From a virus: DNA of 64,000 bases. The stretch is taken from positions 1 to 64,000 of the IMG/VR virus record IMGVR_UViG_3300027770_000039, one strand, 5' to 3'. The notes below the pieces were generated by a model. It was not told where the DNA came from, made no database searches, and saw only the letters and a program-made list of their open reading frames with translations. Position numbers and translations under genes: made by a program. Of this stretch, positions 3,955 to 64,000 are shown piece after piece. Numbering within the stretch: position 1 is the first letter of the stretch; each line of letters starts with the position of its first letter.

Positions 3955-3969
3955 ATCTATATTATACCA
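3955..3969 (-). promoter_or_regulatory. Extended -10 promoter, probably leaderless
   Basis: TGGTATAAT at 3969-3961, 6 nt before the ATG, no SD. Confidence 0.65.
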
Positions 3970-12478: not shown

Positions 12479-12672
12479 TATCTGTTCACCAGGTGCTGAG
12501 AACTGTGCCCGTCTGGGCATGTCCAAGAAAGAGTAAAGGTTGATGGATTCCAAAAAGCTTTTTCTGCATTCTTTTCGCATTTATGGCAAGGCTTTGTGCC
12601 AATAATTTCTTCTAAAGCAGATTGCTGTACTATTTCTTTTTTATCAAAAAATTCATTAATGTTTGGCATCAA
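12478..12672 (-). CDS. Small zinc-ribbon protein
   Basis: CHKC...CPDGH. Confidence 0.7.
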   Translation of the reverse strand: MMPNINEFFDKKEIVQQSALEEIIGTKPCHKCEKNAEKAFWNPSTFTLSWTCPDGHSSQHLVNR

Positions 12673-13570: not shown

Positions 13571-14561
13571 CTATATCTTTCTTAAGTTTTTCAACAACCT
13601 TTGGATTATCCTTTAGATACTGTACGGCTTTAGCTCTACCCTGCAATCTTTCTGAGTTAACTGTGTACCAAGCGCCACCTTTTTCAACTAATCCGCACAT
13701 TTCTGCTACGTCTAAAGTTTCTCCAATATCGTCAACCCCTAAATGATCTCCTTGGTAATAGAAGTCGTACTGTCCTGATAAATTAGGGGGGCCGAGTTTG
13801 TTGTAATCGACAATCCAATTGACTGGCCTTCCAACTCTCTGTTCAATAATTTTATCGCCAACTTTAACACCTGCCTTGATAGCATTAGCCTCAGCTTCTG
13901 AGGACCAAAGTTTAATGACCGTAGAAGAAAAGAACTTGACCGCCATTCCCCCTGTTGGAATATGGGAGGCGTGCATAGATCCAAACTGGTTTCTTTGCTG
14001 TGAAATGAGAACCAATAATGTGTTTTTGTTTGCATAGTTTAACATTTTGACTGCGTGGGTCATATCCTTTGCTTCTGCGCCTATCTGTTTTGTATCTTGT
14101 AAATCTTTTAACTCGTCGCCATCTTTTTCAAAATATATTGCAGGCAACAAAGCTGATATTGAATCAACTACAATAATATCTATATCTGCAGACATAAGTT
14201 TTGTTGCAACGTCTACCATGTCATTAATAGTTTTAGCTGGTGAGTATATTAGTTTTGATGAGTCAACACCTAATTTTTCTGCCCACTCTGGAGAGTAAGA
14301 ATGCTCTGCGTCAATCCAAGCGCAAGTTTTTCCTTCTTTTTGAGCAAGAGCAATCATTTGCAAACAAAAGGAAGATTTACCAGAAGACTTATTTCCCCAT
14401 ACCAAGGCCTGTCTTCCATGTCCAAGTCCACCGTTGAGTGCTAAGTTTAAACCAATGCTTGGAGTTTTTTGTTTTATGATTTTAACATCTACTGCAGACT
14501 GAACTCTATCTCTTGTTTTTGAATCCAGCTTTGCTAAAATCTCTTCCATTAAAATTGTCAT
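13557..14561 (-). CDS. recA: RecA-family recombinase
   Basis: GNKSSGKS, WIDAEH, IVVDSI, PTGGMAVKFF, KGGAWY. Confidence 0.95.
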   Translation of the reverse strand: MTILMEEILAKLDSKTRDRVQSAVDVKIIKQKTPSIGLNLALNGGLGHGRQALVWGNKSSGKSSFCLQMIALAQKEGKTCAWIDAEHSYSPEWAEKLGVDSSKLIYSPAKTINDMVDVATKLMSADIDIIVVDSISALLPAIYFEKDGDELKDLQDTKQIGAEAKDMTHAVKMLNYANKNTLLVLISQQRNQFGSMHASHIPTGGMAVKFFSSTVIKLWSSEAEANAIKAGVKVGDKIIEQRVGRPVNWIVDYNKLGPPNLSGQYDFYYQGDHLGVDDIGETLDVAEMCGLVEKGGAWYTVNSERLQGRAKAVQYLKDNPKVVEKLKKDIDAKI

Positions 14562-30405: not shown

Positions 30406-31236
30406 TTAGATTGGTGTAGAATAACTTGAATAATATTTTTTATTATTAGTTCCAGTTACTACAGCCCTTACCGATAGCCATCTTGCTGAAGAAGAAGCTG
30501 GGGTATCTCCTCCAGATGAGCTAACTTTATATTGTCTATTCTTTCCGCTATCTCCTATGCCGTAAGATGAAGAGGAAGGATACCCTTTTGATCCCGAACT
30601 CACAGTTGTCCCGCCATTTTTTAAAGTTGTTATAATCCATTCGTAAGATATTGAATCATATGAACCAAGACCACTTGAATCATTCCATCCCCAAGATAAT
30701 CCTGTAGAGCCAGTTCTATCAAATATTACAGACGGAACAGATGGTGTTGGTGTAATAAAATTACTTGAGTTTGAAGGGTTTGCTTCAGAAGACGAAACTG
30801 CTGCTGCATACGATGCGGTTGCTGCGTTATATATTCTTGCGTCAACACCAACTGTAGTTGATGCATATTGACTTGTATTTTTAATTTTAATTAATGCATT
30901 ATACTTAGTAGTCTTAGCTGCAGCATCATAATATTCTTCAAAGGTTATTGACTCTATATCTGATAAATCTACAGTGTCTGTCGATCCTTCTGGGTCTTTT
31001 TCTTCGTTATCTCCAGGTGGATTGTCCCCACCAGATCCGTCTCCAAGATAAGGACGAGATACTTGCTTAGAATAAATATATCCAGAATCATTTTTAAGAA
31101 TAGCTTCGTCTGGCCTTAGCCACAACAGGTCTGGGTCTGTAGTTTTAAGCACAACCTTTGACGTCTTGGCTATATTCTTAGACGGTATTCTTTTTATAGT
31201 TTTTTTATTTACTATATCTTGTGATCCTATTGTCAT
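30406..31236 (-). CDS. Hypothetical tail-associated protein
   Basis: C-terminal FnIII-like region; promoter TGGTATAAT at 31251-31243, 6 nt before the ATG. Confidence 0.6.
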   Translation of the reverse strand: MTIGSQDIVNKKTIKRIPSKNIAKTSKVVLKTTDPDLLWLRPDEAILKNDSGYIYSKQVSRPYLGDGSGGDNPPGDNEEKDPEGSTDTVDLSDIESITFEEYYDAAAKTTKYNALIKIKNTSQYASTTVGVDARIYNAATASYAAAVSSSEANPSNSSNFITPTPSVPSVIFDRTGSTGLSWGWNDSSGLGSYDSISYEWIITTLKNGGTTVSSGSKGYPSSSSYGIGDSGKNRQYKVSSSGGDTPASSSARWLSVRAVVTGTNNKKYYSSYSTPI

Positions 31237-31260
31237 TTTAATATTATACCATTTAGATAA

Positions 31261-50951: not shown

Positions 50952-52652
50952 TTAAATATTTTGTACCACTATCCAGTCAGAATTGAAATAATCAACCGAC
51001 AGCTCTGACATTTTACCTAGCTGATCTTCAATAATTGTACCTTGGGAAGATACATATTTATTAAAATGATCCTGAACTTTTTCGGCACTCAGGGCTGATT
51101 CATAAGTAGCCAAATTCTGATATAGGCTTTGCCCTCCCAAAACGCTAGATTTATTAATAGAAATTTCTCCATATATGCTATTTTCAAAAACAATAACAAC
51201 GTGGTAAAGAGAATCTTTTAAAAACAAATTATTTATATTAGTCTGGCTTGTCTTATCTACCCCATTAACGTATATCTTGGATATATTGCTTTTAGATATT
51301 GTATTGCTTGACCAAGTAAGGCTACTTGCGCTGTACCCGCTTGTAGCAACAGATGTAACCAACCCTCCATTTTGAATAGAATACGGTGTATAAAAAAACT
51401 CTATCGATTTTGTTGGGGTTGTCGTATTTATATAAAACGATGAAAGATTTTTTAAGCTGATGCCGTTTCTGTTATCTGTAGAAAGTATTTCATATTTGTT
51501 ATTGCTTACAGGGATGTCTTGCTGGCTGGCTATATAATTAGAGGAATTTTTTGAATAAATTTTTTGATTATTGTAAAAGCTTATGGATAAAAATTTTAAG
51601 GATGGAAGGTATACGCTATCGTCTGATGTTGTAAAATAAACCCTAATATATAAATTTCTTGTTTGACTAAAAGAGCTTAATGAATACTGGGGTACGGGTT
51701 GGCCATTAACGCAAGATTGATAGTTTTGTCCATCTATACTTACCGAAACAGATATTCCATTATCCCCGTCCCATTCAATTCTTGAAGAGTTCATTTCTGG
51801 TCCGCTTGGGATTGTAATAAAATCCTCAATAACAATAGACTGTGAATCTCCGTTTCCCTTTACAACACCGATAAATTCTTTTTGAGAGTTATAGTATAAA
51901 TTATTATCGTTAATAAAATACTGCCATGATTTATTGGCTGGATAGGAATAAGAATACTTTGTTGAAATTGATTTATCTGTAAGTTCAAAAAAATTACCTT
52001 GGTCTGGGTAAACTATTTGAGTAGGGCTTAAAGATTTATTTTCTAAATAATGAGATAAAACCTGATCTTTAGTCAAAGAATTTCTATAAAAAGATACACA
52101 ATTTAAGAGCATATAGTCTAAACTATTATTAACTGGTCCTGACTTCATTGTAATAGATTGATTTGAAAAAGAAAACCCAGACAGATCTTTTTCTGCTTCT
52201 ATCTTTCCATCTATATACAGTATAATTTTATTCTTATTGTATACTGCAACTATATATATAGATTTTTTTAAGAAAGGAACAGTGTACTCTATATGCTTTG
52301 TACCTATTGAAAATACTATATTACCTTTTTTATAAAATAGTCCTATATCATTAGAAGAGTCTCCTACAATTGGTATTTCTAAAGAAGAGGTAGTATTTAC
52401 CCTAACCCAGCATTCTATAGAAAATTGATCATCGGAAAAATTTTTAGTCGCAATTCCATCTATATCTATGTAGGTAATGGCGGCAGTTCCAGAAAGTTTT
52501 GAAGAGTTTTCTGCACCAATAACTAGTGGTAAATTTGTGTTATCTACCGATCCGAATATTGATACCTGATTGTCAAATCCAGAAATATCATCTGTTCCGC
52601 TTGGCCAAAAAGCCAGCGGGTTGTCTGATAAAACTCTAAGATTATACGACAT
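50952..52652 (-). CDS. LamG/concanavalin-like domain virion protein
   Basis: DNPLAFW, FSIECWV, YIVAVY, LYIDG and YHVVIVF motifs; promoter TGGTACAAT 6 nt before the ATG. Confidence 0.75.
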   Translation of the reverse strand: MSYNLRVLSDNPLAFWPSGTDDISGFDNQVSIFGSVDNTNLPLVIGAENSSKLSGTAAITYIDIDGIATKNFSDDQFSIECWVRVNTTSSLEIPIVGDSSNDIGLFYKKGNIVFSIGTKHIEYTVPFLKKSIYIVAVYNKNKIILYIDGKIEAEKDLSGFSFSNQSITMKSGPVNNSLDYMLLNCVSFYRNSLTKDQVLSHYLENKSLSPTQIVYPDQGNFFELTDKSISTKYSYSYPANKSWQYFINDNNLYYNSQKEFIGVVKGNGDSQSIVIEDFITIPSGPEMNSSRIEWDGDNGISVSVSIDGQNYQSCVNGQPVPQYSLSSFSQTRNLYIRVYFTTSDDSVYLPSLKFLSISFYNNQKIYSKNSSNYIASQQDIPVSNNKYEILSTDNRNGISLKNLSSFYINTTTPTKSIEFFYTPYSIQNGGLVTSVATSGYSASSLTWSSNTISKSNISKIYVNGVDKTSQTNINNLFLKDSLYHVVIVFENSIYGEISINKSSVLGGQSLYQNLATYESALSAEKVQDHFNKYVSSQGTIIEDQLGKMSELSVDYFNSDWIVVQNI

Positions 52653-52677
52653 GATTAAATTGTACCATCAAGGAATT

Positions 52678-53367
52678 TTAATATCCGCCCACGTGAAAGA
52701 CCTGGCCCGACAAGCTGGAAGACTTTTCGTCAAAAAGTAACTCTACTAGATTTGCTATATCGGTTACAGTATACTCTTTCGGAACAACTTGACCTAGTAA
52801 TAAAGTTTGAAAATAAATTTCTGGCATAAATTTTGTAAATCTAGTTCTTATTGGTCCTGGGGCTATACAGTTTGGCCTAATTTTAGTACCGCATACTTGT
52901 TTAGCTAAAGACCTTGTGTATGTTTCTAAAGCTGCTTTTGATGCTGAATACATAGACTCTGAATTTATTTGATGCGCCGCTAAGCTTGATATGTTAACTA
53001 TTGGAGTATGTTTCTCTGGGTCTACAAGAGCAAGAAATTTAGATATAACATTATAGGGACCTAAAACGTTGACATTCATCATTTGCTCAACTTGTGGAAA
53101 AATTTCTCCATAAGCGGGTGATGGCCAGTAAGCACCAGCACAGTTTACAATTCCAGAAATAACAATATTTCTTTCTTTAATTGATTTAAATAAACTTTCT
53201 AGTTTTTCCTGATCAACAATATCTGTTTGTATGTACTCAAAGGTATCGCTATTATCAGAGTTTCTGACGTGCCTTCCAACTCCAATAACTTCGTGCCCTA
53301 AAGAGACTAGCCTTTTGGCAACTTCATTTCCAATTCCTCTGACTGCTCCTACTACTAAAACCGTCAT
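52678..53367 (-). CDS. Short-chain dehydrogenase/reductase
   Basis: GAVRGIG, VNCAG, NISS, YSASK, NCIAPGPI. Confidence 0.92.
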   Translation of the reverse strand: MTVLVVGAVRGIGNEVAKRLVSLGHEVIGVGRHVRNSDNSDTFEYIQTDIVDQEKLESLFKSIKERNIVISGIVNCAGAYWPSPAYGEIFPQVEQMMNVNVLGPYNVISKFLALVDPEKHTPIVNISSLAAHQINSESMYSASKAALETYTRSLAKQVCGTKIRPNCIAPGPIRTRFTKFMPEIYFQTLLLGQVVPKEYTVTDIANLVELLFDEKSSSLSGQVFHVGGY

Positions 53368-54017
53368 TCTGTGCCATCCGAATAGTATGGCTTAGATCTA
53401 TTGTGATACCAATTTGGAAGAGCGTATCTAATTCCAGAAGTTATTGCCGATACTTCGTGGACGTATATGTAATTAGAAGGGAAGAACAATAAACTTCCTG
53501 CTTCTGGTTTTAAACTTACACCTGCATGTTCAAATTTAATATTTCCTCCTTCGTAATCATCGTTTAAATAAAGAAGTGCTGATAAAACTCTGCTGCTAAT
53601 TCCGTGGTCAGAATGTGCTGGCAAAAAGCCAGATTCCTTATACTTTAAAAGATGCATTGTTTTTTCTCTTGATTTAATATTTTTTTGAGAGTATGGATAA
53701 ATAGAAAAATAGTCTTGCAATCCTTTTTCTAATGCCCCAAATAAAACATCTGATATTTCTTTTTGTTCTTGATAAAATAGATCATCTTTTGAAATATCTT
53801 CAGATTTTGGGATAAACTTTTGCCAACAAAAAACAGTTTTTTCTTTTCCGCCGTGATCGTAATCCCAGGGTTGCCAGCCTCTTACATAAAGAGAATTGTA
53901 TCCAACAGACTCACTTCTTTTTATTTCTAAATCTTCAATTTTTTTAATTAGAGACTTAGGGTCTGGTATTATATTTTTATAATAAGCCATTCCTAGGGAA
54001 AGAATTTCTCTATTCAT
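53364..54017 (-). CDS. 2OG-Fe(II) oxygenase, P4H-like
   Basis: HSD...YLNDDYEGG...HEV...RY. Confidence 0.9.
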   Translation of the reverse strand: MNREILSLGMAYYKNIIPDPKSLIKKIEDLEIKRSESVGYNSLYVRGWQPWDYDHGGKEKTVFCWQKFIPKSEDISKDDLFYQEQKEISDVLFGALEKGLQDYFSIYPYSQKNIKSREKTMHLLKYKESGFLPAHSDHGISSRVLSALLYLNDDYEGGNIKFEHAGVSLKPEAGSLLFFPSNYIYVHEVSAITSGIRYALPNWYHNRSKPYYSDGTE

Positions 54018-54565
54018 TAAAATACTCCAAAATCTGGGTCGGCAAAGTCCATCTTTGTGGATTGCATGTAAAGCGCAGTAAATCTATTTCCTTTAGTTAT
54101 TTCTTTTACTCCGTGCAGATAATCATATTTATTTCCTGGGAAAAAAATAGCTGATAGGGATTTTGGTCTGTGCTCAAAATTTTGTTTAGGAAAATAGATT
54201 TCTCCACCTTCATAATCATCGTTTAAGTAAATTACAGTGCTGTATTCTATAAATGGTTCTTTTTCAATTGCATCAATATGAGGACTTCCACTTTGCCCTG
54301 GTTGCCACCATGATCCAAAAGCCTTGGTAACAATTACATTATCTTTTAAATTAAAAAATTCTTTTTGTATATGGTTTGCTCTTACTGAATATTTTTTAAG
54401 AATATCCATTACTCTATTATTGTATGGAAAAGCAGTTCCACCATTTCTATCTTTATAATACTCTGGGTACGGGTTTCTTTTTGAAGGAGATTGCATCTCT
54501 TCTATCAGGGCAAATGCATCTTGTTCTGATATAAAATCTTCTACAATTTTTATCATGCTGTTCAA
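54017..54565 (-). CDS. 2OG-Fe(II) oxygenase, P4H-like
   Basis: HID...YLNDDYEGGEIYF...HGV...RF. Confidence 0.9.
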   Translation of the reverse strand: MNSMIKIVEDFISEQDAFALIEEMQSPSKRNPYPEYYKDRNGGTAFPYNNRVMDILKKYSVRANHIQKEFFNLKDNVIVTKAFGSWWQPGQSGSPHIDAIEKEPFIEYSTVIYLNDDYEGGEIYFPKQNFEHRPKSLSAIFFPGNKYDYLHGVKEITKGNRFTALYMQSTKMDFADPDFGVF

Positions 54566-55383
54566 TTTATTACTCCTTTAAAGTTTAAATATCTTTCTCC
54601 GCCAACTTTGTCTGTTAATGAACCAGAAGGATCATACAAAACATCGTTTGTTGAAAATGGTAGACTTGATATTTCTAATCCAAACACCTGTTTAATGCTG
54701 GAACTCCATTTACTCACAAACTCATTATACCCGTGATATATAGAAAAAGGCAAATATTCGACCTTATCTAACTCAATTGTTTTATTTTTAAAAAAAGTTG
54801 TAGGAAGGGCAAAGATTTTTGTAAAATTAAAATATATAGCTAAATGTTCTCTTTCTCCATGATATTTTAAATAACCTGGCAATTTGTTATATAAAAAAGA
54901 CTTAGATTTTGTAAAAATAAAATCTTTATCTATATATTTTGTCAATGTGTCTTCAGAGATAGGCTCTTTTTTATATGAAACAATAAATGGGTTTTCTAAA
55001 TATGGTATAAGTCTGTGATTTCCAGAAATTATACAATCTTCATTGAGGCTGAGTAGTTCTATTTTTTGAACTAGATCTTCGTCCCAATTTTTATTTAGGC
55101 TTACCCCATCTCCAATTAGCAAAAAGTATTCTTTTTTGAAAAGTCTATACCCTTCTTGTTTATGCAAAATTGGGCTTTTAATGCTATCCCATTTTACATA
55201 TTTGTAATAAATTTTTACATTTGAATAGTTAGACTTTAAACTTTTTTTTCTATCAATATTGTTTTGATCAATTATATAAAAAAATAAATTGTTTAATCCA
55301 CTGGAATTTTCTATATTTTTTTCAACTAATTCTATTAAATCTTTATTTTGAAAAGAATACAAAACTATGCCAATATCTTTCAT
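54562..55383 (-). CDS. GT-A glycosyltransferase-like protein (GT60/Gnt1-like, divergent)
   Basis: EYFLLIGDGVSLNKNWDEDL, DFIFT and YHGERE resemble GT60 motifs (YLQIDSH..F..NWD; F.GEE). Confidence 0.5.
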   Translation of the reverse strand: MKDIGIVLYSFQNKDLIELVEKNIENSSGLNNLFFYIIDQNNIDRKKSLKSNYSNVKIYYKYVKWDSIKSPILHKQEGYRLFKKEYFLLIGDGVSLNKNWDEDLVQKIELLSLNEDCIISGNHRLIPYLENPFIVSYKKEPISEDTLTKYIDKDFIFTKSKSFLYNKLPGYLKYHGEREHLAIYFNFTKIFALPTTFFKNKTIELDKVEYLPFSIYHGYNEFVSKWSSSIKQVFGLEISSLPFSTNDVLYDPSGSLTDKVGGERYLNFKGVIN

Positions 55384-56060
55384 TCAAACAGATCCGTAAA
55401 AATACTATCTTCATTCATTGGTCCCTTTGGAACTAATATAATATCATAGGCAATTGTCATTCTTGGCTCATCCCCGTACCAGTCGTCTCTGCCATGTGGG
55501 TTGCCAGTTTCTGATAAAATAGCTCTATTGTTTTTATTAATATTTTCAAAAATATCTTTATTGTTGATTTTATAATAAGTAATCGAAGGTTCTGCTTTTA
55601 CGCAGTAGAATCCATGTAGCTGTGGAAATCCTGAACCGTCCATATGGTCGTGGAAAAACGAACTGTCTTTTCTTGGGTCTACCGAATGGACGTTGTTAAT
55701 TATTTTTTTATCTAAATTAAACCAACCATGGGTAATAAATTTTGACGAATTGTCGTTATAGCCATAGTACTCGCAAGCTTCTCTTGTCATGTCAGCAATA
55801 GCTTCTTTTAACTTTTTTATTTCTGGGTTGTCAAATTCCCAAATATTATACCTGTCACTATTTTTTGTAGCAATAGCATCCAGAATTCCTGGGTCTTGAG
55901 CTAGGGCTTTATTTAAGCCTTCTCCCATTTCTTTCCTTGCCTGTTCAACTAATTCATTATTTTTTTCTAACAAAAAACTATAAAGATTTTCTAAATTATT
56001 ATCTAAAGTTCTTTCAAAAAATTTATGATCTTTTTTTTCTTTCATAGAAGTGGTATCCAA
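55380..56060 (-). CDS. Putative 2OG-Fe(II) oxygenase
   Basis: GWFN...FHDH...HGFYCV...PHG...RMTIAYDI. Confidence 0.7.
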   Translation of the reverse strand: MDTTSMKEKKDHKFFERTLDNNLENLYSFLLEKNNELVEQARKEMGEGLNKALAQDPGILDAIATKNSDRYNIWEFDNPEIKKLKEAIADMTREACEYYGYNDNSSKFITHGWFNLDKKIINNVHSVDPRKDSSFFHDHMDGSGFPQLHGFYCVKAEPSITYYKINNKDIFENINKNNRAILSETGNPHGRDDWYGDEPRMTIAYDIILVPKGPMNEDSIFTDLFE

Positions 56061-56692
56061 TGCTGAGGACTTGCTTTTGCCTCAATGATAGAATTTAATG
56101 GCATAATATCATAAGCAATTGTAATTCTTGGTCCTTCCCAGTCCCAACTTCCCATAGCATGAGGGTGACCCATTTCTGAAACAATCATTCTGTTATCTAT
56201 ATTGTGATTTTCAGTTTCTTTTTCAAAAACTTTGTAATAAGTAATTGATGGTTCTGCTTTTACGCAATAAAATCCGTGAAAATAAGGAGCATAAGGACCT
56301 CCATGATCGTGCCAATCTAGTTTTCCAACTTCTGCATAATTTATGTTAAACCATCCTTGCACCATGTATTGCTGTTTATCAAAATCAATATCATAATAAG
56401 AACAAGCTTCTTTTATTACATCAGAAAGCTCTTTATACAGTTTGTAAATTCCTGGATGATAAAATTGAAAAACATTGTAGTCTCTCCATTTTATAGTAGA
56501 AACACTACCAGACTCTTTCCAATAGTCTGACTTGCCCACTTCTGTAATACCTTTAATGCTTAAATTTTCAATTTTAGAATATTGATCTTGTAAAAATAAA
56601 GACAAATCTTGTAAATCATTATCTAAAATCCTTTCAAAAAACTTGTGAGGTTTTCCGCTAGGTTTATTTTTTCCAGATAGGAAGTATTCCAT
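56042..56692 (-). CDS. Putative 2OG-Fe(II) oxygenase, paralogue of the neighbour
   Basis: GWFN...WHDH...HGFYCVKAEPSITYYK...PHA...RITIAYDI. Confidence 0.7.
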   Translation of the reverse strand: MEYFLSGKNKPSGKPHKFFERILDNDLQDLSLFLQDQYSKIENLSIKGITEVGKSDYWKESGSVSTIKWRDYNVFQFYHPGIYKLYKELSDVIKEACSYYDIDFDKQQYMVQGWFNINYAEVGKLDWHDHGGPYAPYFHGFYCVKAEPSITYYKVFEKETENHNIDNRMIVSEMGHPHAMGSWDWEGPRITIAYDIMPLNSIIEAKASPQHWIPLL

Positions 56693-57445
56693 TTATTTCT
56701 CTTTTCTTGTGTAGTTTTTTCTTTTCCATATAAAATCTTTATAATATGAATATATTGATATTCTTCTTTTTTCTTCTTTGATTTTTTTTACCACTATGTC
56801 TTCTTTGGAGTAATCCAATGACATTTCCCAGTTTTCTCTTTTAAATGGAAAAACTTGAAATATAGGCGTTCCTTTTTTAATAGTTCCCATAAAATTTCTT
56901 TTTAGAAAAAATGCTGTAAATACTGGTGCGTTCCATTCATCGGAGTCTATAACTCCAGAAAGAGTGGTAAATGGAAGATCATGTCTATTGTGTGGGTGTG
57001 TAATTAAAATAGAATACCCTGGTGGAGTTTCGCAATGCCAAGGAATTTTCCAGCCATAATGCATTGGATGGTGTTCATGTGGAACTGCAACTTCTATCAT
57101 GTTTCTTTTATCTACTAGCATAAAATTATTTGTATTTTTAATAGAAGGAAACCCATTTTTATCTAAACTTACCTCAATATCATCTTCTAGGCAAAACATA
57201 TAACCTGCTGTTAAGGAATCAAAAAATGGCATACATAATTTAGTAGAGCCAGCGCTACCGTCTGTTCCTCTATCATTTACTGGAAACAACCTTAGCAAAT
57301 CATTTGAGGTTTGAAATCTGGAAAGCTTTTTATACCACTCTGGCAAATTATTTATGGCAGGAGAGGGTGCGTCATAGTCTTTTGGTTCAAAATTAAGATT
57401 AACCTCTGCTGGGGTGAATTTAATTATTAAATTATTATCACTCAT
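56693..57445 (-). CDS. DUF6065-like protein (dUTPase-like beta fold)
   Basis: LPEWY, TKLCMPFFDSLTAGY, TPPGYSILITHP, SGVIDSD, KGTPIFQVFPFKRENW. Confidence 0.6.
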   Translation of the reverse strand: MSDNNLIIKFTPAEVNLNFEPKDYDAPSPAINNLPEWYKKLSRFQTSNDLLRLFPVNDRGTDGSAGSTKLCMPFFDSLTAGYMFCLEDDIEVSLDKNGFPSIKNTNNFMLVDKRNMIEVAVPHEHHPMHYGWKIPWHCETPPGYSILITHPHNRHDLPFTTLSGVIDSDEWNAPVFTAFFLKRNFMGTIKKGTPIFQVFPFKRENWEMSLDYSKEDIVVKKIKEEKRRISIYSYYKDFIWKRKNYTRKEK

Positions 57446-58145
57446 TAATAATTTTTTTAATAACCTTTTCTGTAGCTTTTATAGAAATATAAAATAGTGG
57501 AGTATTTCTCTCTATTAACCTTATTTGTTTTTCATTAGATAAAAAACAAAAATCTATAAAAGTTGGTTCCTTTATTATATCATTATTATTAGTTTTTTCA
57601 AAGGTCCCACTAGTCTCAATAATGCATATTACTGGGTCTTTTTTAATATTTTTTATACTATACTCTGCATCGCAATCAACAATCCATGGTACATATATCT
57701 TAAAAATTCTGTCCGAAACTTGTTTAAAATTATTTTTATTTAACAAGTCTTTAAAGCTTTCAATAGACAAAAATGATGGATAAAACTGCCTAACCATAGA
57801 TTTTTCAGATGCATAAAATATACTAGAAACCTGTTTATTGCTTGTTGGATGTCCTTGCCAAAGAATATCTGAATAATTCTTGTATATTAGATTTATCTCA
57901 TTTTTAGAAACTATCTCTATTTCTGGTTTGATTCCAAAATTATCTACATATAAATTTATTGGTTTTAAAACATTATTTTTATATTTTTTTAAAACTTGAT
58001 CCCAGGTTGCCCAATCATAAAAAACGTTGCATTCTTTTAAAATATCTTTAAAACTCATTGAAGACATCTCTAGCCAAGAATTAGATTCAAATGGTGCCCT
58101 TAATATGGGAAACGTTTTATTTATCGAAATATCTTTTTTGACCAC
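57438..58145 (-). CDS. Hypothetical protein, possibly a degenerate DUF6065-like paralogue
   Basis: FKIYVPW and IERNTPLFYI remnants. Confidence 0.5.
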   Translation of the reverse strand: MVKKDISINKTFPILRAPFESNSWLEMSSMSFKDILKECNVFYDWATWDQVLKKYKNNVLKPINLYVDNFGIKPEIEIVSKNEINLIYKNYSDILWQGHPTSNKQVSSIFYASEKSMVRQFYPSFLSIESFKDLLNKNNFKQVSDRIFKIYVPWIVDCDAEYSIKNIKKDPVICIIETSGTFEKTNNNDIIKEPTFIDFCFLSNEKQIRLIERNTPLFYISIKATEKVIKKIINE

Positions 58146-58852
58146 ATTTTTTTCCTATAACCATTTCTAAAAACTGATCTAACCGAAAGTTGCTGGGCTC
58201 TAATTTGTGTATCAGAATCTTTTTCTTTATTAAGCGAGCTTTCCCAATCATCTCTCTTAAAAGGAATAATTTGAATAATTGGAGTGCCTTGTTCAATTAC
58301 TCCTTTAAATCCTTTTTCTACAAAAAAAGACAAATAACCATCAGAAGCGTATTTATCTGTGTCTATCAACCCTGGGATAGCTTGTAGAGGGCTTTTTTCT
58401 CCGTGCATTGGGTTTATAAACAAACAACTATACCCTGGCTCTGTTCTGGCAACCCACATTGGATGTATTCTTATAACTTGCTTATGAAAATTATTAGGAA
58501 TAGGGTATTCTTTTATTTGTTCAGATAAATGATGAGCTAATAAAAATTTTTGAAACTCTCTTGTATCATTTGGAATATCAATTTTTAAAATATCTCCTGT
58601 AGCATCTATGCTTAAATCCATAGGGCAAAGTAAGTAATATCCAAAAGTCATAGAATCAAAAACAGCTTGACATTTTTTTACTGTTAAAAGCATATTTCCG
58701 CTATGAACAGATGTATCATCATTTAAATAGCTTTTTTGTTTTTTCCACCACTCTGGAAGCAATGAAGATACCGATTGAGGATTTGGGAATATTTTTTCAA
58801 GTCCTCTATACTTTGGAAGAAATTCAATCTTTATCAAACTAATGGAATCCAT
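58121..58852 (-). CDS. DUF6065-like protein
   Basis: LPEWW, TVKKC..VFDSMTFGY, TEPGYSCLFINP, PGLIDTD, QGTPIIQIIPFKRDDW. Confidence 0.6.
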   Translation of the reverse strand: MDSISLIKIEFLPKYRGLEKIFPNPQSVSSLLPEWWKKQKSYLNDDTSVHSGNMLLTVKKCQAVFDSMTFGYYLLCPMDLSIDATGDILKIDIPNDTREFQKFLLAHHLSEQIKEYPIPNNFHKQVIRIHPMWVARTEPGYSCLFINPMHGEKSPLQAIPGLIDTDKYASDGYLSFFVEKGFKGVIEQGTPIIQIIPFKRDDWESSLNKEKDSDTQIRAQQLSVRSVFRNGYRKKMWSKKIFR

Positions 58853-59394
58853 TTCTGATAGTATTGTCTGTGCAAATTTTGTAATGTAGATACAGAAAAA
58901 TATAAAAACATACTATCTTTATTTATTGTATCACAAAAATCTATTATATCTCCTTTATCAAATAGAATTAAGGTACCTTCTGGCGTATCTATTTCTTTTT
59001 CATTAATTATCATTTTATTGTTATTGCTTTTAATTACATATATCCCAGAAAAATTTAACCTTGTTCTATCTGGAGTTGTCACCAAAAAATTGTTGACAGA
59101 TTGATCTAGTAAATTTCCTAATAAATAGTAATAATTATTTTCAAAGTTTATTTTGTTTTTTTTGCACTCTTCTTTAATAATTTTAGATATTTCTAAATAT
59201 AATTTGTATATTTCTTTATGGTACATTCCAAAAAAATTAAAAGTTTTATAATCAATTAAAGAAATTTTTTTTGTTTTAATTTTTGTTCTGACTCCCCATT
59301 TTGCAGAACCTACTTCTTCATACATTGAGTCAATCATATCTTTATATTGTTTATATAAGAATTCGTTTCTAATGTTTTCTAGTTTTGTTATCAT
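58834..59394 (-). CDS. Degenerate paralogue of the 56042..56692 oxygenase
   Basis: FNFFGMYHKEIYKLYLEISKIIKEEC aligns with YNVFQFYHPGIYKLYKELSDVIKEAC; lacks the HxH ligands. Confidence 0.55.
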   Translation of the reverse strand: MITKLENIRNEFLYKQYKDMIDSMYEEVGSAKWGVRTKIKTKKISLIDYKTFNFFGMYHKEIYKLYLEISKIIKEECKKNKINFENNYYYLLGNLLDQSVNNFLVTTPDRTRLNFSGIYVIKSNNNKMIINEKEIDTPEGTLILFDKGDIIDFCDTINKDSMFLYFSVSTLQNLHRQYYQKWIPLV

Positions 59395-59399
59395 AATTT

Positions 59400-60041
59400 T
59401 TATTTCTCTAAAATTTCATTTGGGTTTTTTTCGTAAGGTCTGAGAGAATGCCAAGTTGCTGGTAAAATAGGATCTTTAAAGTGCTCTAAGTCTGGCTCTG
59501 TAATAATTTCTTTTGATTCTCCCAAAATTATATTTTCATTTTTTTTATTTTTTGATCTTTTAAACCTTAAAGCTAATATTAATTTAGCTGATTGTTTATG
59601 CATAGCAGATCCAGTTTTGCTTGCAGAAACACCTTGTCTAACTCTAACATTATACTTTGCCCACCAAACAGTATATCCCAATATGGCCAATGAAATATTT
59701 ATTTTTTTTCTTCTATAATAAGGCTGGCAGTAAACTCTATTTATCACAGCATCTTTACATTTTTTTATATTATCATTTTGTATGTTTGAAATGTCTATCC
59801 ATGAAGTAGGATATTCGTTATTTATAAAATTAGAAAATATTAATGTTCCAGAAGGATTTTTATCATTAAGGTAAAGGCATTCTATGCCTTTGTTTCCATT
59901 TACGTCTTGCATTAAAGTCCATTGAATCCAAGAACCTTTTATATACTTAGGGTATTTTCTAAATATTGGAAAAATAAAACCTTTTGTTGATTTTGCACCA
60001 ACAAATCCCATATTGTAAATATGCTTAACTAAATTAAGCAT
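59400..60041 (-). CDS. Hypothetical protein with GNAT-like motif A
   Basis: INRVYCQPYYRRKKI; start likely MLNLV at 60041. Confidence 0.45.
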   Translation of the reverse strand: MLNLVKHIYNMGFVGAKSTKGFIFPIFRKYPKYIKGSWIQWTLMQDVNGNKGIECLYLNDKNPSGTLIFSNFINNEYPTSWIDISNIQNDNIKKCKDAVINRVYCQPYYRRKKINISLAILGYTVWWAKYNVRVRQGVSASKTGSAMHKQSAKLILALRFKRSKNKKNENIILGESKEIITEPDLEHFKDPILPATWHSLRPYEKNPNEILEK

Positions 60042-60046
60042 GCTTA

Positions 60047-61363
60047 TTAGGCAGGGGTTGTAGGGTCGGTGTCTCCTGCTGTAGAGTCTTTCCATTGCTG
60101 GTAAAGTACCTCTAGAGATTCAGAAACGCTTTGGTTTGGCTCAGTAATAACGTTAGGTGATGTTATGTCTAGTCTAACTGAGTCGTGGACTAAAGAGTTG
60201 TCTGTAAAGAATACGTCATAAGGCTCTGTGTTAATAGTAATAACTAACTCTGGTCCCTCTGAAACTCTTAGCTCAATAATTGGCTGCCAATCATTGAATG
60301 TTGGAGAGTAGATTAAATCTGTTTCTACAATTTCATTAGCTGAAATAAATCTTGCTATTCCATCTCTTTTGGTTAGAACCCAGTGTGTATTTGTATATTT
60401 ATTTCCGTTAATTACATAAGTGGTCATTGCAATGTTTGCTGAAATAGACACCACTGTTGTTTCAATATCAGTATTAATTTGTGGGGCAGCAGATGACCAA
60501 GATTCAATAATTTCTTCTAGTCCTACTCCGTCCATTGGCAAATCATCAATTGCTGCTGAGTACAGAATATCTCCTGCAGAAACGTTGTGAGCTAACACAA
60601 GACCTTCAGGAACCTTTGAATGAATTAATGTATCTGCTCCAATTGATTTTCCTGGTGTAAAGCCGAACGGGGTGAAGCCGAACGGGGTGAAGCCGAACGG
60701 GGTGAAGCCGAACGGGGTAAAGCCGAACGGTGCAAAGCTGAATGGGGTTGTAGTAATATTTCCTGAATAATTAGACCATGCTCCATTTCCATTAGCATTT
60801 CTAGCCCGCACTCTAAAGTTCCAAACAAAGTCATTGTTTTGGCTTGCAAAATCTACGCTGTTTGTTCCAACTGCTACGGTCTTATTGTCGTCTCCGCCTC
60901 CACCATTATCTTCTAAATAATAATCAATAATTGCTGATCCACCGTCTGCTGGTGTTGACCAGGAAGCTCTATTGTTTTGTGCTCCATTGTTTGCTGCTGA
61001 CGGAGTTGAAATTGTATCAGGCACTGTTGTTGCAGTAATGCTATTAGACGCAGCAGATGCTGGCGAGTTTCCAACTGCATTTGTTGCTATAACTGTAAAT
61101 GTGTATGCTGTATTTGATTGTAGACCAGTTACAGACAGGGGAGATGATGCTCCTGACGCAGTGTATGATCCTGGAGAGGATGTTACTGTGTATGATGTGG
61201 CTGCAGGTGAGTCTTCTGGTAAAGAAAACGTTACATCAGCACGTCCATTATTGAATGCACGACCTGAACCTACATCTGTTGCGGCTACTGACGTTGGTGC
61301 TTTTGGCTCCAAAAAGTCATTTGATGCCTGTGCCTTTTTACCGAATTTCTTACCTGCTGCCAT
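60047..61363 (-). CDS. FnIII x2 - (PFGFT)n repeat - Hint domain protein
   Basis: FnIII motifs (VTGLQSNTAYTFTVIATNAVG; FRVRARNANG); repeats at aa 207-237; Hint at aa 240-394 (SIGADTLI, TNTH, INTEPYDVFFTDNSLVHD). Confidence 0.8.
   Translation of the reverse strand: MAAGKKFGKKAQASNDFLEPKAPTSVAATDVGSGRAFNNGRADVTFSLPEDSPAATSYTVTSSPGSYTASGASSPLSVTGLQSNTAYTFTVIATNAVGNSPASAASNSITATTVPDTISTPSAANNGAQNNRASWSTPADGGSAIIDYYLEDNGGGGDDNKTVAVGTNSVDFASQNNDFVWNFRVRARNANGNGAWSNYSGNITTTPFSFAPFGFTPFGFTPFGFTPFGFTPFGFTPGKSIGADTLIHSKVPEGLVLAHNVSAGDILYSAAIDDLPMDGVGLEEIIESWSSAAPQINTDIETTVVSISANIAMTTYVINGNKYTNTHWVLTKRDGIARFISANEIVETDLIYSPTFNDWQPIIELRVSEGPELVITINTEPYDVFFTDNSLVHDSVRLDITSPNVITEPNQSVSESLEVLYQQWKDSTAGDTDPTTPA
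60653..60745. repeat. 15-bp coding tandem repeat (about 6 copies)
   Basis: AAGCCGAACGGGGTG units encode PFSFA(PFGFT)5P on the minus strand. Confidence 0.95.
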
Positions 61364-61395
61364 TTTGAATCTCCTTTTTCCTATTTAAATTTCTA

Positions 61396-63099
61396 TTACG
61401 CCATCAAGTCGCCGTAGACAACCCATGTATTTGCTGCTCTCTTAAAGAGAGTTGCAGATGACCAGGTTGTACGAAGTTTCAAACCAGGTGTTGCGTTAAC
61501 AGTTACTCCACCAGCACCTGCAATTGTAACCTGACCAGTTGATGTCTGAAGGATATCAATAGAGGTTCCGACTGGGAAGTTTAGTGTTGCATCTGTTGGA
61601 ATTGTAAGTGTTAGTGCTGAAGATGATCCCATTTCAATTAAGTCATCTCTTTCAGTTAATGCTGAAAGTGTATAAGATGCTGTCTTCTGAATGATTGGTG
61701 TCCGTGATGGTACACCTTCCATTGTTTGTGTTCCGTCTGTAAATGCTACACCTGAAGCAGAGGCTGTAATTAATCCTGTTGCTGTAATTGCTGGTGCTGT
61801 TACTGTACCAGTAAATGTTGGTGAAGCAATTGGTGACTTTGTAGCAATTGAGTTTGTAATTGTTGTTGAGAATGATGCGTCATTTCCAAGAGCAGTTGCT
61901 AACTCATTAAGAGTATCAAGTACTGCAGGTGCTGATGCTACAAGGTTTGAAACTGCTGTTCCTACGAATGCTGTAGTTGCAACCTGTGTAGTTGATGTTC
62001 CTGCTGTTGCAGTTGGGGCAGTTGGTACACCAGTAAGTGCTGGTGAAGCAAGTGGTGCCTTTAGATCAAGTGCTGTCTGCGCTGCAGTTGAAACTGGCTT
62101 TGCTGTGTCTGCAGTATTATCAACATTTCCAAGACCAACCATTGACTTTGTAATACCAGAAACTGTTCCAGTGAAAGTTGGTGAGGCAAGGTCAGCCTTA
62201 AGTGCCAATCCTGAGTTAACAGTTGCAGTTAATGCTAATGCTGATGTGTCTGAAATACCGTGTACGCTTGTTGTATCTGCGGTGTGGGTATCTAAATTTG
62301 TTGCTGCTGTGGTAGCGGCAGCTGTAATTGCTGCTGCTCTAGCAGTTGCTTCTGCTGTAATTGCTGCGCCTCTAGCAGTTGCTTCTGCTGCGACTGCACC
62401 AGTAACATAAGTTTGATTTGCTAATACTGATGTGTCTGCAATTCCGTGTACAGATGTAGTATCATTGTTGTGAGCAGTAATTTCAGTATTGACATAGTTC
62501 ATTGTTGCCAATGCTGTCATGTCTGCTACTCCGTGAACGTTTGTGCTAACCTGACCGTGTGTTGCAATTCCTGCGACTGTCTGTGTTTGAATATCGTCTA
62601 CATATTTCTTAGTTGATGCATCATAATCTAATGTAGGTGTTGCAAGACCTGTGATTTTGCTATTACCCATTGCAATAGCGCCAGTCATTGTTCCGCCAGA
62701 TTTTGGTAATCTAGTATTTATGCTAGTATTCATTGTAGTTACAAAATTTGCGTCATCATTGATGGCTGCTGCTAACTCGTTAAGAGTATCTAGTACTCCA
62801 GGAGCTGCGTCAATTACATTTCCTAATTGATTAATCGGCACCTGTCCTTGTGCATCTAGTGATGCTACTCCGTTGGCAACGCCTCTATCGGCTACCTCAA
62901 GATAGTCTCCAAGTGTATTTGTTAAATCTGAAGGAACAACGTTTGCATAAGCTAGGGATGTCCAAGCAGTAGAACCTGTTCCAATTTTAGTTTTTCTAGT
63001 ATCTGACTCTACGCCCATTTCTCCTGCGGCTAGAGTTGGATTTGCTGAAGTCCATTGTGCTGCGGTACCTCTGCGAATTTGAATTCTTACTGTTGACAT
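61396..63099 (-). CDS. Tail fibre-like protein with an Mtd N-terminal-like domain
   Basis: IQIRRGTAAQWTSANPTLAAGEMG; AP.VLDTLNELA.A twice; VHG(I/V).D three times; promoter TGATATAAT at 63141-63133. Confidence 0.75.
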   Translation of the reverse strand: MSTVRIQIRRGTAAQWTSANPTLAAGEMGVESDTRKTKIGTGSTAWTSLAYANVVPSDLTNTLGDYLEVADRGVANGVASLDAQGQVPINQLGNVIDAAPGVLDTLNELAAAINDDANFVTTMNTSINTRLPKSGGTMTGAIAMGNSKITGLATPTLDYDASTKKYVDDIQTQTVAGIATHGQVSTNVHGVADMTALATMNYVNTEITAHNNDTTSVHGIADTSVLANQTYVTGAVAAEATARGAAITAEATARAAAITAAATTAATNLDTHTADTTSVHGISDTSALALTATVNSGLALKADLASPTFTGTVSGITKSMVGLGNVDNTADTAKPVSTAAQTALDLKAPLASPALTGVPTAPTATAGTSTTQVATTAFVGTAVSNLVASAPAVLDTLNELATALGNDASFSTTITNSIATKSPIASPTFTGTVTAPAITATGLITASASGVAFTDGTQTMEGVPSRTPIIQKTASYTLSALTERDDLIEMGSSSALTLTIPTDATLNFPVGTSIDILQTSTGQVTIAGAGGVTVNATPGLKLRTTWSSATLFKRAANTWVVYGDLMA

Positions 63100-63151
63100 T
63101 TTATTCCCCTTTTACTGCTTTAGTTATGATATATTATATCATTTTTTTTTG

Positions 63152-63511
63152 TTATGCTATTGAACCTGAATCAAAAACAAGTTGAAATGAAGAGGTAGAG
63201 GGATCTCCACCACTAGCTACACCAGTTGTGCCTGAATTGTCTACTCCGTTGGCTTGAACTGTGTATATAGGCTCTCCATCATAATCGATTGCCAGACCAA
63301 GGTCCATAAATGAAATTTCTTCAGATAAGTCTGGGATATCTGTTGCAAGTGCAACGTTAACCCAAGTATTATCTAATTGAATTTGTAATTTATTTGATGC
63401 TGTATCGAATCTTAAAGGGGTTGTTCCTAGTATGACTGAAGACTGGAATGTGGCAGATCCTGCGACATTGAGTCCGTTCTTTATTCTAAAGTTTTTATCT
63501 GTTGTTGCCAT
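63152..63511 (-). CDS. Hypothetical virion-associated protein
   Basis: MATTDKNFRIKNGL N-terminus; fibre-gene context. Confidence 0.65.
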   Translation of the reverse strand: MATTDKNFRIKNGLNVAGSATFQSSVILGTTPLRFDTASNKLQIQLDNTWVNVALATDIPDLSEEISFMDLGLAIDYDGEPIYTVQANGVDNSGTTGVASGGDPSTSSFQLVFDSGSIA

Positions 63512-63579
63512 TTAAGTTCACATATCCCCTAATTGTTTTTTTGGGGAGATTTCAGGCTCTCCCCTGGCCCTTTATTTAA

Positions 63580-64000
63580 TTATTTAATCAATGTTCCAAC
63601 TACAACAACTTCAGTGTTATTGTTTGCTGGGGTTACACGAATTCTTACATCTGAGCCAGAATAATCTGCAGTTACTGCAGCTAACTCTGTTCCGTTTGAA
63701 TATGTAATTCCATATTCAGAAACTGCTACGTTGTTAGAAGTATCAAGTGTAACTACTAGGTCTGATACCTGAGTGTGGCTACCATTTTTTGCTTTAACTA
63801 CAAGCTTAGCGCTTCTGTAATCTGCTGCTGCCCATGAGATAGCAGTTGTTGCTGCAGCGGTTACAATATTTCCAGTTGTTGCTGCAACTTGCTTGGCAAC
63901 AGAGTTGTAATTAATTGATGTAAATGCTGTAGTTCCGTTTTGCTGTGCTGTATTAGCTGCTGCTGCAGTTGCTTCTGCTGCTGCTTGAGCTGCGTTAGCT
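63580..64000 (-). CDS. C-terminal part of a fibre-like virion protein (starts beyond the window)
   Basis: Open frame ...AAADYRSAKLVVKAKNGSHTQVSDLVV...SEYG...VRIRVTP...GTLIK*. Confidence 0.75.
   Translation of the reverse strand, partial: ANAAQAAAEATAAAANTAQQNGTTAFTSINYNSVAKQVAATTGNIVTAAATTAISWAAADYRSAKLVVKAKNGSHTQVSDLVVTLDTSNNVAVSEYGITYSNGTELAAVTADYSGSDVRIRVTPANNNTEVVVVGTLIK

Follow-up and report, generated by a model that had tools for sequence, protein, structure and literature searches.

A Repeat–Hint Fibre Protein and Its Adjoining Enzyme Cassette as a Candidate Self-Modification System of a Lake Phage

Introduction

Aquatic phage genomes are rich in genes for 2-oxoglutarate (2OG)–Fe(II) oxygenases, whose substrates are unassigned and which tend to be listed among the auxiliary metabolic genes (AMGs). 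Here we analyze the first 64 kb (64,000 nucleotides, hereafter the window) of the IMG/VR phage record IMGVR_UViG_3300027770_000039, a genome of 110,973 bp with direct terminal repeats. At positions 52678–61363, the gene for a fibre-module protein, g1, is followed by a cassette of 11 co-directional genes, g2–g12, several of which encode putative oxygenases. g1 carries a Phe-rich pentapeptide repeat, (PFGFT)n, directly before a C-terminal Hint domain. The locus offers a candidate substrate encoded next door to the enzymes, and related phages supply a series of natural variants whose enzyme sets shift along with the type of repeat. Based on the comparisons described below, several of the cassette enzymes probably hydroxylate and sugar-coat the tail of g1, and we regard the locus as a candidate phage self-modification system.

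Results

Organization of the Locus and of the g1 Protein

A preliminary description of this DNA had read the locus as a precursor consisting of fibronectin type III (FnIII) domains, the stretch PFSFA(PFGFT)5P, and a Hint domain, followed by 11 same-strand genes with gaps of at most 5 nt. This layout is confirmed by the open reading frames (ORFs), the fn3 matches, and the Hint fold. All 12 ORFs lie on the minus strand, to which the coordinates of g1–g12 given below refer, and the distances between the cassette genes range from −25 to +5 nt. g1 and g2 seemed to overlap by 49 nt; the conserved Met19 of g2 (60041) is the start in all orthologues, and with this start the overlap disappears.

The 438-residue g1 protein (60047–61363) comprises, in this order, a conserved N-terminal segment, two FnIII domains, the PFGFT repeat, the Hint domain, and a helical tail. 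The FnIII domains (approximately residues 23–205; 60749–61297) match Pfam fn3 in two stretches with an E-value of 4e-12 and are modelled by AlphaFold2 (AF2) with a predicted local distance difference test score (pLDDT) above 90. Both Foldseek and VIA return tandem FnIII matches for g1, and FnIII matches dominate the Foldseek search with the whole model. The PFSFA(PFGFT)5P tail (residues 207–237; 60653–60745) is predicted to be disordered (pLDDT ∼35) and runs directly into G-K-S240, where Ser240 opens the Hint domain (residues 240–396; 60176–60646). A C-terminal extension (residues 397–438; 60050–60175) contains an L..LYQQW motif and a modelled helix at residues 413–429, and is kept in type-1 relatives only. 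g1 is the sole FxF-repeat protein of the genome, in which no collagen-like protein and, near the cassette, no other Pro-rich repeat protein was found.

The repeat is maintained for its peptide sequence. A search with the C-terminal part of g1 recovered 453 relatives at E ≤ 1e-3, nearly all of which combine FnIII domains with 3 to more than 12 PFGFT units placed directly before x-K-S, and the unit is kept while the Hint domain drops to 41% identity. The 15-bp units of the window repeat are almost identical; in relatives, 10 units use up to 10 codon sets. Since PFGFT is written in many synonymous codon sets, selection acts on the peptide, and slippage alone is insufficient to explain the repeat. 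The significance that had been attached to the Pro/Phe/Thr pentapeptides is borne out to this extent.

The C-Terminal Domain Is Predicted to Adopt a Hint Fold Suited to Self-Cleavage

The AF2 model of g1 (pLDDT 80.9) was compared with 48,161 Protein Data Bank (PDB) representatives by VIA-align. Residues 238–401 align with the Tetrahymena bacterial intein-like (BIL) domain BIL2 (6tmm; Z 16.5, root-mean-square deviation [rmsd] 2.3, 136 residues aligned), with Hedgehog (1at0; Z 16.2, rmsd 1.9 Å, 131 residues), with a Clostridium BIL domain (2lwy; Z 16.1, rmsd 1.7, 130 residues), and with about 20 inteins (Z 13–16), and the alignment places Ser240 on intein residue 1. Pfam gave no Hint match for g1 itself, and a phmmer search of the PDB with the g1 Hint domain alone returned nothing useful, so that a profile was needed. 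With a profile of 29 diverse C-terminal domains, BIL domains and inteins were the only PDB matches (8.7e-6 to 5e-3). The nucleophile column of this alignment is Ser or Cys in all 29 domains. Block B reads T-N-T-H in g1 and S/T-x-x-H in Ser-type relatives, and its His is often Gln in Cys-type relatives; the domain ends in L-V-H-D-S in g1, in L-V-H-N-K in Cys-type relatives, and in L-V-F-D in a third type. By its modelled structure, the C-terminal domain of g1 is a genuine Hint fold, and it keeps the residues needed for cleavage at its own first residue, as had been proposed.

A splicing intein was considered and rejected, because the domain ends in His-Asp rather than His-Asn, is followed by a 42-residue tail, and has no second host half. 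The His-Asp end and the helical tail instead point to a BIL- or Hedgehog-like processing domain. BIL and Hedgehog Hint domains (2lwy, 6tmm, 1at0) share with g1 the fold (Z 16), the nucleophile at position 1, and the S/TxxH block B, and in both cases the domain lies C-terminal to a non-enzymatic passenger and lacks a homing endonuclease, an arrangement that suggests cleavage or transfer rather than splicing. In contrast to these domains, which have Cys and His-Asn, g1 has Ser1 and His-Asp together with the 42-residue helical extension, and Hint domains of the g1 type are invariably preceded, in phage fibre-module proteins, by an aromatic repeat; their activity is putative.

Self-removal of the Hint domain is best supported, if indirectly, by five relatives that lack it (L072, L078/L082, L083, L086). 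Each of them ends in an Arg or Lys immediately behind the repeat, and the following gene begins 40–80 nt further on, leaving no space for a Hint domain. Their encoded C terminus corresponds to the product that cleavage between Lys239 and Ser240 would yield in g1, in agreement with the earlier proposal that cleavage leaves the repeat as the C terminus. Taken with the conserved residues, this makes it likely that the Hint domain removes itself.

Many relatives encode, about 5 kb upstream, a second and unrelated passenger fused to the same repeat–Hint module. Such passengers include a PASTA-type protein, a 914–944-residue protein, and a Cys-rich 730-residue protein (second loci at L023 4157–5239, L042 2967–5801, L014 2851–5043, and L061 46–801). 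The second proteins share the repeat type of their own genome; the window genome has only one repeat–Hint protein.

P4H-Type Oxygenases, a GT60-Like Transferase, and a Short-Chain Dehydrogenase

BLASTP comparisons within the cassette define three paralogue sets, g3/g7/g8, g4/g6, and g10/g11. The last of these consists of prolyl 4-hydroxylase (P4H)-type 2OG-Fe(II) oxygenases. g11 (53364–54017) keeps an HSD...H...R motif and matches PF13640 (2OG-FeII_Oxy_3) at 2e-14, with 54.8 bits against a cut-off of 27; it also gives a weak match to Tet_JBP (E 0.004). g10 (54017–54565) keeps HID...H...R, matches phrog_61 (1e-16) and its paralogue g11 (3e-12), and has no Pfam match. In the 34-member family built around the two proteins, H135, D137, and H187 are near-invariant. 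A search of the PDB with the profile of this family retrieved protein prolyl and lysyl hydroxylases, among them Bacillus anthracis P4H (1e-16), the prolyl 3-hydroxylase P3H1 (7e-15), PBCV-1 P4H (1e-7), mimivirus L230 (1e-5), Chlamydomonas P4H, LH3, and PHD2, with AlkBH8 last at 4e-4. By similarity, the best PDB relatives of g10 and g11 are thus protein prolyl/lysyl hydroxylases, and their prolyl hydroxylase activity is putative.

g9 (54562–55383) is a putative GT60-like (PF11397 GlcNAc) glycosyltransferase (GT), an assignment made through its orthologues. Half of these (7/14, 23–47% identical to g9) match PF11397, the best at 8.6e-7; g9 itself has no Pfam match at E ≤ 0.1. The pairing of P4H and GT60 enzymes posited for this locus is supported at the level of families. 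The remaining member of this group, g12 (52678–53367), had been labelled a short-chain dehydrogenase/reductase (SDR), and is indeed a classical one by its adh_short match (6.7e-36, 124 bits) and its G-A-V-R-G-I-G and Y-S-A-S-K motifs. Sister cassettes contain further enzyme genes that are absent here, namely a TP_methylase-family methyltransferase gene between the GT and P4H genes (L003 16821–17531, 2e-21) and a gene of the Asp/Asn beta-hydroxylase family (L059 12699–13307, 2e-12).

The O5 and DUF6065 Proteins, g5, and g2

The proteins g3, g7, and g8, here called O5 proteins, match no family library searched. g7 (56042–56692) is a PF13759-related, putative three-His iron oxygenase in whose family H128, H130, H178, and R189 are near-invariant. 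Its paralogue g8 (55380–56060; BLASTP to g7 1e-44) keeps the HDH and NPH motifs, and g3 (58834–59394; 4e-10 to g7) is a degenerate paralogue from which H128 and H130 are gone. PF13759 (2OG-FeII_Oxy_5) matches none of the three and none of 43 close relatives. An O5 profile search returned 432 clusters, however, and 15 of 45 distant homologues (E ≤ 1e-16) do match PF13759, the best at 2.8e-5; the Atlas feature neighbours of g7 are likewise PF13759 clusters (0.96). These matches suggest a transitive assignment of the O5 proteins to the PF13759 group. The three HxH-type oxygenase paralogues counted before would all belong with PF13759, g3 as a degenerate member that lacks the HxH motif.

g4 (58121–58852) and g6 (56693–57445) belong to DUF6065/phrog_7084, with phrog_7084 matches of 1e-43 and 1.7e-32, respectively, and a BLASTP match of 6e-28 between them. 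With Pfam DUF6065 (PF19541), g4 scores 26.2 bits and g6 21.2 bits against a cut-off of 26.6, and the syntenic gene of L018 scores 101.9. In the VIA comparison of the g4 model (AF2 pLDDT 89.7), the top 22 matches are all dUTPases or dCTP deaminases (Z 9.7–6.0 over approximately 110–140 residues), after which Z falls to 3, and Foldseek agrees in returning the dUTPase/dCTP-deaminase superfamily. The modelled DUF6065 fold is that of the dUTPase superfamily, and these proteins are therefore not oxygenases. Their alignment shows an invariant Cys61 and two conserved stretches, G-L-I-D-T-D and G-T-P-I-I-Q, which we take to be motif III-like and motif IV-like by comparison with the dUTPase motif consensus. 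The DUF6065 proteins have no Gly-rich C-terminal arm and no Pfam dUTPase match. That the O5, DUF6065, and P4H sets are all cupin or double-stranded beta-helix oxygenases was also considered and rejected, since hhalign shows no relation of O5 to DUF6065 or to P4H.

A third DUF6065-like gene had been counted, g5 (57438–58145). It is a possible degenerate paralogue, related to the DUF6065 alignment by hhalign at a probability of 40% (E 3e-4), and it has no match in the family libraries. The DUF6065 label is thus probable for g4 and g6 and weak for g5, and the dUTPase fold is not that of an oxygenase-like tailoring enzyme. With g3 lacking HxH and g5 barely DUF6065-like, each of the two paralogue sets has one member without the conserved residues. 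These two proteins may be non-catalytic subunits or adaptors.

g2 (59400–60041, counted from Met19) is a conserved protein with 12 aligned orthologues. Neither g2 nor its 12-member profile matches Pfam, PHROG, NCBIfam, or PDB entries, and Acetyltransf_1 clusters appear among its Atlas neighbours only at rank 18 (0.91, 135 shared features), a weak lead. The GNAT label proposed for g2 is left without support, and so is the +42 mass shift predicted from it. Profiles of O5, DUF6065, g9, and g2 have no sequence relatives in the PDB. A complex prediction for residues 200–438 of g1 with g4 scored 0.00, a value that weighs neither for nor against binding.

Cassette Composition and Repeat Type Shift Together in Related Phages

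The neighbourhoods of the 453 g1-family members were sampled through 96 related IMG/VR loci, whose genes were labelled by phmmer; dereplication left 53 loci with a g1 homologue (G1) and downstream DNA. The co-occurrence and co-variation that the preliminary description had asked for are both seen. In all 53 loci, at least one O5, DUF6065, or P4H gene directly follows G1 at this position, and the make-up of the cassette differs with the repeat. Pure PFGFT repeats are accompanied by g2, two to three O5 genes, two DUF6065 genes, g5, GT60, and two P4H genes, with the SDR gene present or absent. PFGAFGFT repeats are followed by O5 genes only, and FGA-rich repeats by one DUF6065 gene with neither P4H nor GT. 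Pro-Pro repeats (PFFPP, PGFFAPP, HFPP) occur with five to eight P4H genes and DUF6065, and without O5.

The full PFGFT cassette occupies at least four separated places on the tree of the FnIII part. When presence of the GT is tabulated against purity of the PFGFT repeat, the counts are 27/23/1/2, and phylogenetically independent pairs are concordant in a mean of 4.6 of 6 cases and discordant in none (median p 0.06). Over all sign tests, median p values run from 0.06 to 0.125. The association of PFGFT with P4H and GT holds across Hint domains of the Ser/His-Asp (window), Cys/His-Asn (L076), and Ser/Phe-Asp (L064) types. As the Hint domain lies between repeat and cassette, persistence of the link across three Hint subtypes argues against simple hitch-hiking.

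Genomic Surroundings and Transcription Signals

Nearly all genes of the window are encoded by the minus strand. g1 and the cassette sit on the late strand between fibre-like genes and the portal gene. The upstream neighbour (61396–63099, minus strand) encodes a tail-fibre protein with an Mtd_N domain (3.5e-15); downstream lie the gene for a Laminin_G_3/ConA-like lectin protein (LamG; 50952–52652, minus strand; Laminin_G_3 8e-9) and then the portal gene (Phage_portal 8e-32). The portal is 57–59% identical to those of Streptomyces siphophages with genomes of 120–130 kb, and lake-water libraries hold contigs closely related to the g1–cassette region. Together with the leaderless-type TGGTAYAAT elements described below, these similarities make an actinobacterial lake host likely. 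A search for tRNA genes found none. Against isolate phages, megablast with the region and tblastn with g7 gave no match, and tblastn with g1 gave a single match, confined to the FnIII part.

An extended −10 element, TGGTACAAT (52659–52667, minus strand), lies 6 nt before the ATG of LamG, is kept in relatives, and likely marks the end of the g1–cassette transcription unit. The TGGTAYAAT motif occurs in 19 copies where 10 are expected, 16 of them on the coding strand. On the minus strand it is found exactly 6 nt before the ATG of LamG and of the ORFs 3496–3954 and 30406–31236 (sites 52659–52667, 3961–3969, and 31243–31251), a spacing that fits leaderless transcripts as in Actinobacteria. The preliminary description had placed the next promoter only after the SDR gene, at 52667. 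A conserved element does lie at that position, but an 11/12 sigma-70-like site with TG is also present inside g5 (57601–57574). A scan with the sigma-70 consensus gave 59 promoter-like matches, compared with 56 in shuffled sequences, and thus no excess. Contigs from RNA libraries of lake water match 59684–60664 (the g1/g2 junction) and 55242–57527 (g8 to g6) at 90–99% identity; they are not proof of transcription, and their depths cannot rank the genes.

Discussion

The features of the locus suggest a model in which g1 would be the last protein of the fibre gene block, attached through its conserved N-terminal segment, with the two FnIII domains as spacers and (PFGFT)n as a flexible tail. The Hint domain would perform an N-to-O acyl shift at Lys239–Ser240, and resolution of the ester would free it together with the helical tail, leaving a mature g1 that ends in ...PFGFT-P-G-K, the same end that the Hint-less relatives encode directly. 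During late gene expression, at least part of the downstream operon would modify this tail. The P4H-type dioxygenases g10 and g11 would hydroxylate its prolines, and the GT60-like g9 would glycosylate hydroxyproline or threonine; further oxidations may come from the PF13759-like O5 proteins, and the SDR g12 may act on the sugar or a hydroxyl group. The outcome would be a chemically decorated fibre tip. Fold and motifs argue for the maturation step, the chemistry of which we infer, and family identity, operon packing, and co-variation point to modification of the tail.

We assign a probability of about 0.5 to the proposal that the PFGFT tail is the substrate of at least the P4H/GT60 pair. More tentatively, a widespread family of lake phages may possess a dedicated, modular virion pathway in which the Hint domain exposes the repeat, or transfers it in a Hedgehog-like manner, and matched enzyme sets rewrite it. 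Such sets would be P4H with GT60 for PFGFT, batteries of P4H for Pro-Pro repeats, and PF13759 oxygenases for PFGAFGFT, and the dUTPase-fold DUF6065 proteins would possibly be peptide-modifying enzymes. The overall reading of the preliminary description is partly supported. The Hint domain, the P4H/GT60 pair, and the co-variation speak for it, whereas the GNAT enzyme, an oxygenase-like tailoring role of DUF6065, and the likeness to pathways of ribosomally synthesized and post-translationally modified peptides (RiPPs) are unsupported or weakened.

The proposed pairing has counterparts in eukaryotes and their viruses. In the Skp1 pathway of Dictyostelium and Toxoplasma, the P4H PhyA hydroxylates a proline that Gnt1, a member of CAZy family GT60, then glycosylates. 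The likeness lies in the combination of a P4H-type 2OG oxygenase with a GT60-family polypeptide GlcNAc-transferase. The Skp1 pathway is eukaryotic and cytoplasmic and concerns one proline of one protein; the phage locus has two P4H genes, a Pro/Thr repeat of 5 to 12 units, and many extra genes. Among giant eukaryotic viruses, PBCV-1 encodes a prolyl 4-hydroxylase (5c5t) along with Pro-rich repeats, and mimivirus encodes the collagen lysyl hydroxylase/glycosyltransferase L230 (6ax6). These viruses, like the phage, carry an enzyme of P4H or lysyl hydroxylase type together with repeat proteins as likely substrates, but their repeats are PAPK or collagen repeats rather than Phe-rich pentapeptides, and the Hint cap and multi-enzyme operon are peculiar to the tailed phage in this comparison. 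Peptidase_S74 fibres, which sister phages carry at this locus, end in a self-cleaving intramolecular chaperone domain. They resemble g1 in that a fibre-module protein is expected to lose its C-terminal domain by self-cleavage once the task of that domain is done; the two domains have neither fold nor chemistry in common.

The RiPP comparison that had been drawn is a loose analogy. A gene-encoded repeat peptide adjoins tailoring-type enzymes and a proteolytic maturation step, as in RiPP clusters, but neither a leader nor a recognition element was identified, the "core" forms the tail of a 239-residue protein folded into two FnIII domains, the cut would be made in cis by the Hint domain at the C-terminal side, and the product would most likely be a part of the virion and not a free small peptide. 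Strictly speaking, the system is not a RiPP pathway; it is a candidate for self-modification by a phage.

Several observations weigh against modification of the tail by the cassette. The cassette (52000–60000) has a GC content of 0.28–0.30, compared with 0.41 in g1 and the fibre genes (60000–64000) and approximately 0.35 in the genome, and in this it resembles acquired accessory DNA. A class II ribonucleotide reductase (RNR) gene lies directly after the cassette in many sister phages, an accessory islet with an RNR, a cytochrome P450, and a DUF6065–sulfotransferase pair lies 7–13 kb upstream in this genome, and three further PF13640 genes occupy unrelated contexts in the genome (RecA, a TipAS-like gene, and the lysin region). 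DUF6065 homologues also occur beside RNR in haloarchaeal viruses and in the AMG island of a cyanophage. The RNR, the P450, and the scattered additional P4H genes show that the site at the end of the fibre block also takes up accessory genes in general. Concerning co-variation, the GT/PFGFT contrasts are too few for significance and hence suggestive, not significant; all loci come from one lake-phage lineage; and repeat and cassette adjoin, so that linkage alone can create co-variation. The second repeat–Hint proteins of relatives have no adjoining enzymes. Finally, only N-terminal cleavage is argued for the Hint domain, since it ends in His-Asp.

Many of these points would follow if the cassette were an accessory island unrelated to g1, with enzymes that make or modify a small peptide, a secondary metabolite, or a host component, and with the end of the fibre block acting as a recombination hot spot; co-variation would then reflect lineage and linkage. 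A precedent exists in the dioxygenase array of the cyanophage Syn9 (Synechococcus phage), which includes a dUTPase-fold protein bearing a conserved Cys and was read as tailoring a peptide or secondary metabolite, no protein substrate being proposed (Iyer et al. 2010, PMC2938197). The presence of a dUTPase-fold protein among dioxygenases matches DUF6065 here, down to the invariant Cys61. Besides the low GC, the RNR beside the cassette in sister phages, the P450, sulfotransferase, DUF6065, and RNR genes upstream, and the nonsignificant contrasts, an accessory island would fit the occurrence of DUF6065 in AMG or RNR contexts of isolates without a g1-like gene. The array described here differs from that of Syn9, however, in standing directly behind a repeat–Hint protein and tracking its repeat type, and the window has no halogenases or JmjC proteins. 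Within the cassette no small repeat-peptide ORF was seen, and no G1 locus lacks an adjoining O5, DUF6065, or P4H gene. Across three Hint types, the number of P4H genes varies with proline content and the GT with Thr/Pro units, and the genes, all co-directional, are packed into the late virion block without intergenic gaps. We consider an unrelated island rather unlikely on balance.

The main targets could instead be other fibre or adhesin proteins of the virion, such as the Mtd-type fibres, LamG, or, in relatives, collagen-like S74 fibres; the g1 tail would then act only as a flexible linker or as a hydrophobic, sticky tip in no need of modification. Collagen-like S74 fibres stand at the cassette end in L018, L042, and L059, collagen hydroxylases are among the PDB relatives of the P4H proteins, and FGA-rich relatives of g1 that lack P4H and GT imply that the protein can work without them. 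In this genome, however, the vicinity of the cassette holds no collagen-like or Pro-rich repeat protein, 18 close relatives share the full cassette with this phage and, like it, have no collagen gene, and cassette make-up tracks the repeat type of g1, all of which renders these targets improbable. Even less can be said for modification of nucleotides or DNA, in which the dUTPase-fold proteins would act on deoxynucleoside triphosphates, the 2OG oxygenases on bases, and the GT on hydroxymethyl bases, as in phage DNA hypermodification. The DUF6065 fold with its motif III-like GLIDTD, the Tet_JBP match of g11, and the RNR neighbour in relatives hint in this direction, but g11 matches PF13640 far better (2e-14) than Tet_JBP, the P4H profile favors prolyl/lysyl hydroxylases and finds AlkBH8 last, the g9 orthologues match a protein-directed GT60 family, and the cassette belongs to the late virion block and stands apart from the replication genes. 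A role in DNA modification is thus very improbable.

In literature searches on DUF6065, on BIL domains in phages, and on P4H and tail fibres of phages, no description of the repeat–Hint protein or of its link to enzymes came up. The earlier assertion that no such pathway had been described holds for the repeat–Hint module; dioxygenase arrays with a dUTPase-fold protein had been reported (Iyer et al. 2010, PMC2938197). New elements for the PFGFT type are the evidence from modelling for a Ser/Asp Hint fold, the Hint-less end-products, the codon evidence, the transitive PF13759 assignment, the GT60 assignment through orthologues, and a tree-aware, though underpowered, test of co-variation.

If the proposed modification of the g1 tail is correct, tailed phages would hydroxylate and glycosylate their own fibre tips, which has so far been known only for giant viruses. 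The tail would be the first substrate for long-orphan phage 2OG oxygenases and DUF6065 proteins, the Ser/Asp Hint domain would be a device for fibre maturation, and functional work on DUF6065 and PF13759 would have its first point of entry. More generally, such a new phage surface chemistry would matter for how hosts are recognized and for how host defences or grazers are evaded. If the proposal is refuted, what remains would be a commonplace accessory island next to an unusual fibre protein that cleaves itself.

Accessory genes elsewhere in the genome were recorded as well. The islet 5′ of the fibre genes, at whole-record (G000) positions 71450–72892 (plus strand), 73269–74018, 74011–74742, and 68207–70141 (all minus strand; locus L099), contains a cytochrome P450 gene (3.9e-72), a canonical DUF6065 gene that overlaps one for a sulfotransferase-like protein, and the gene for an RNR of class II. 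One of the additional PF13640 genes (12656–13570, minus strand) overlaps recA (13557–14561), and another (2858–3499, minus strand) adjoins a gene with a TipAS antibiotic-recognition domain (3496–3954). The third (105777–106511) lies with a CHAP lysin gene 2.4 kb from the gene for a 675-residue protein with a Pro-rich (EEPPVVV)n repeat (whole-record positions 108928–110955, minus strand; L101 5929–7956). The (EEPPVVV)n protein and this oxygenase are a possible second hydroxylase–substrate pair of the same phage.

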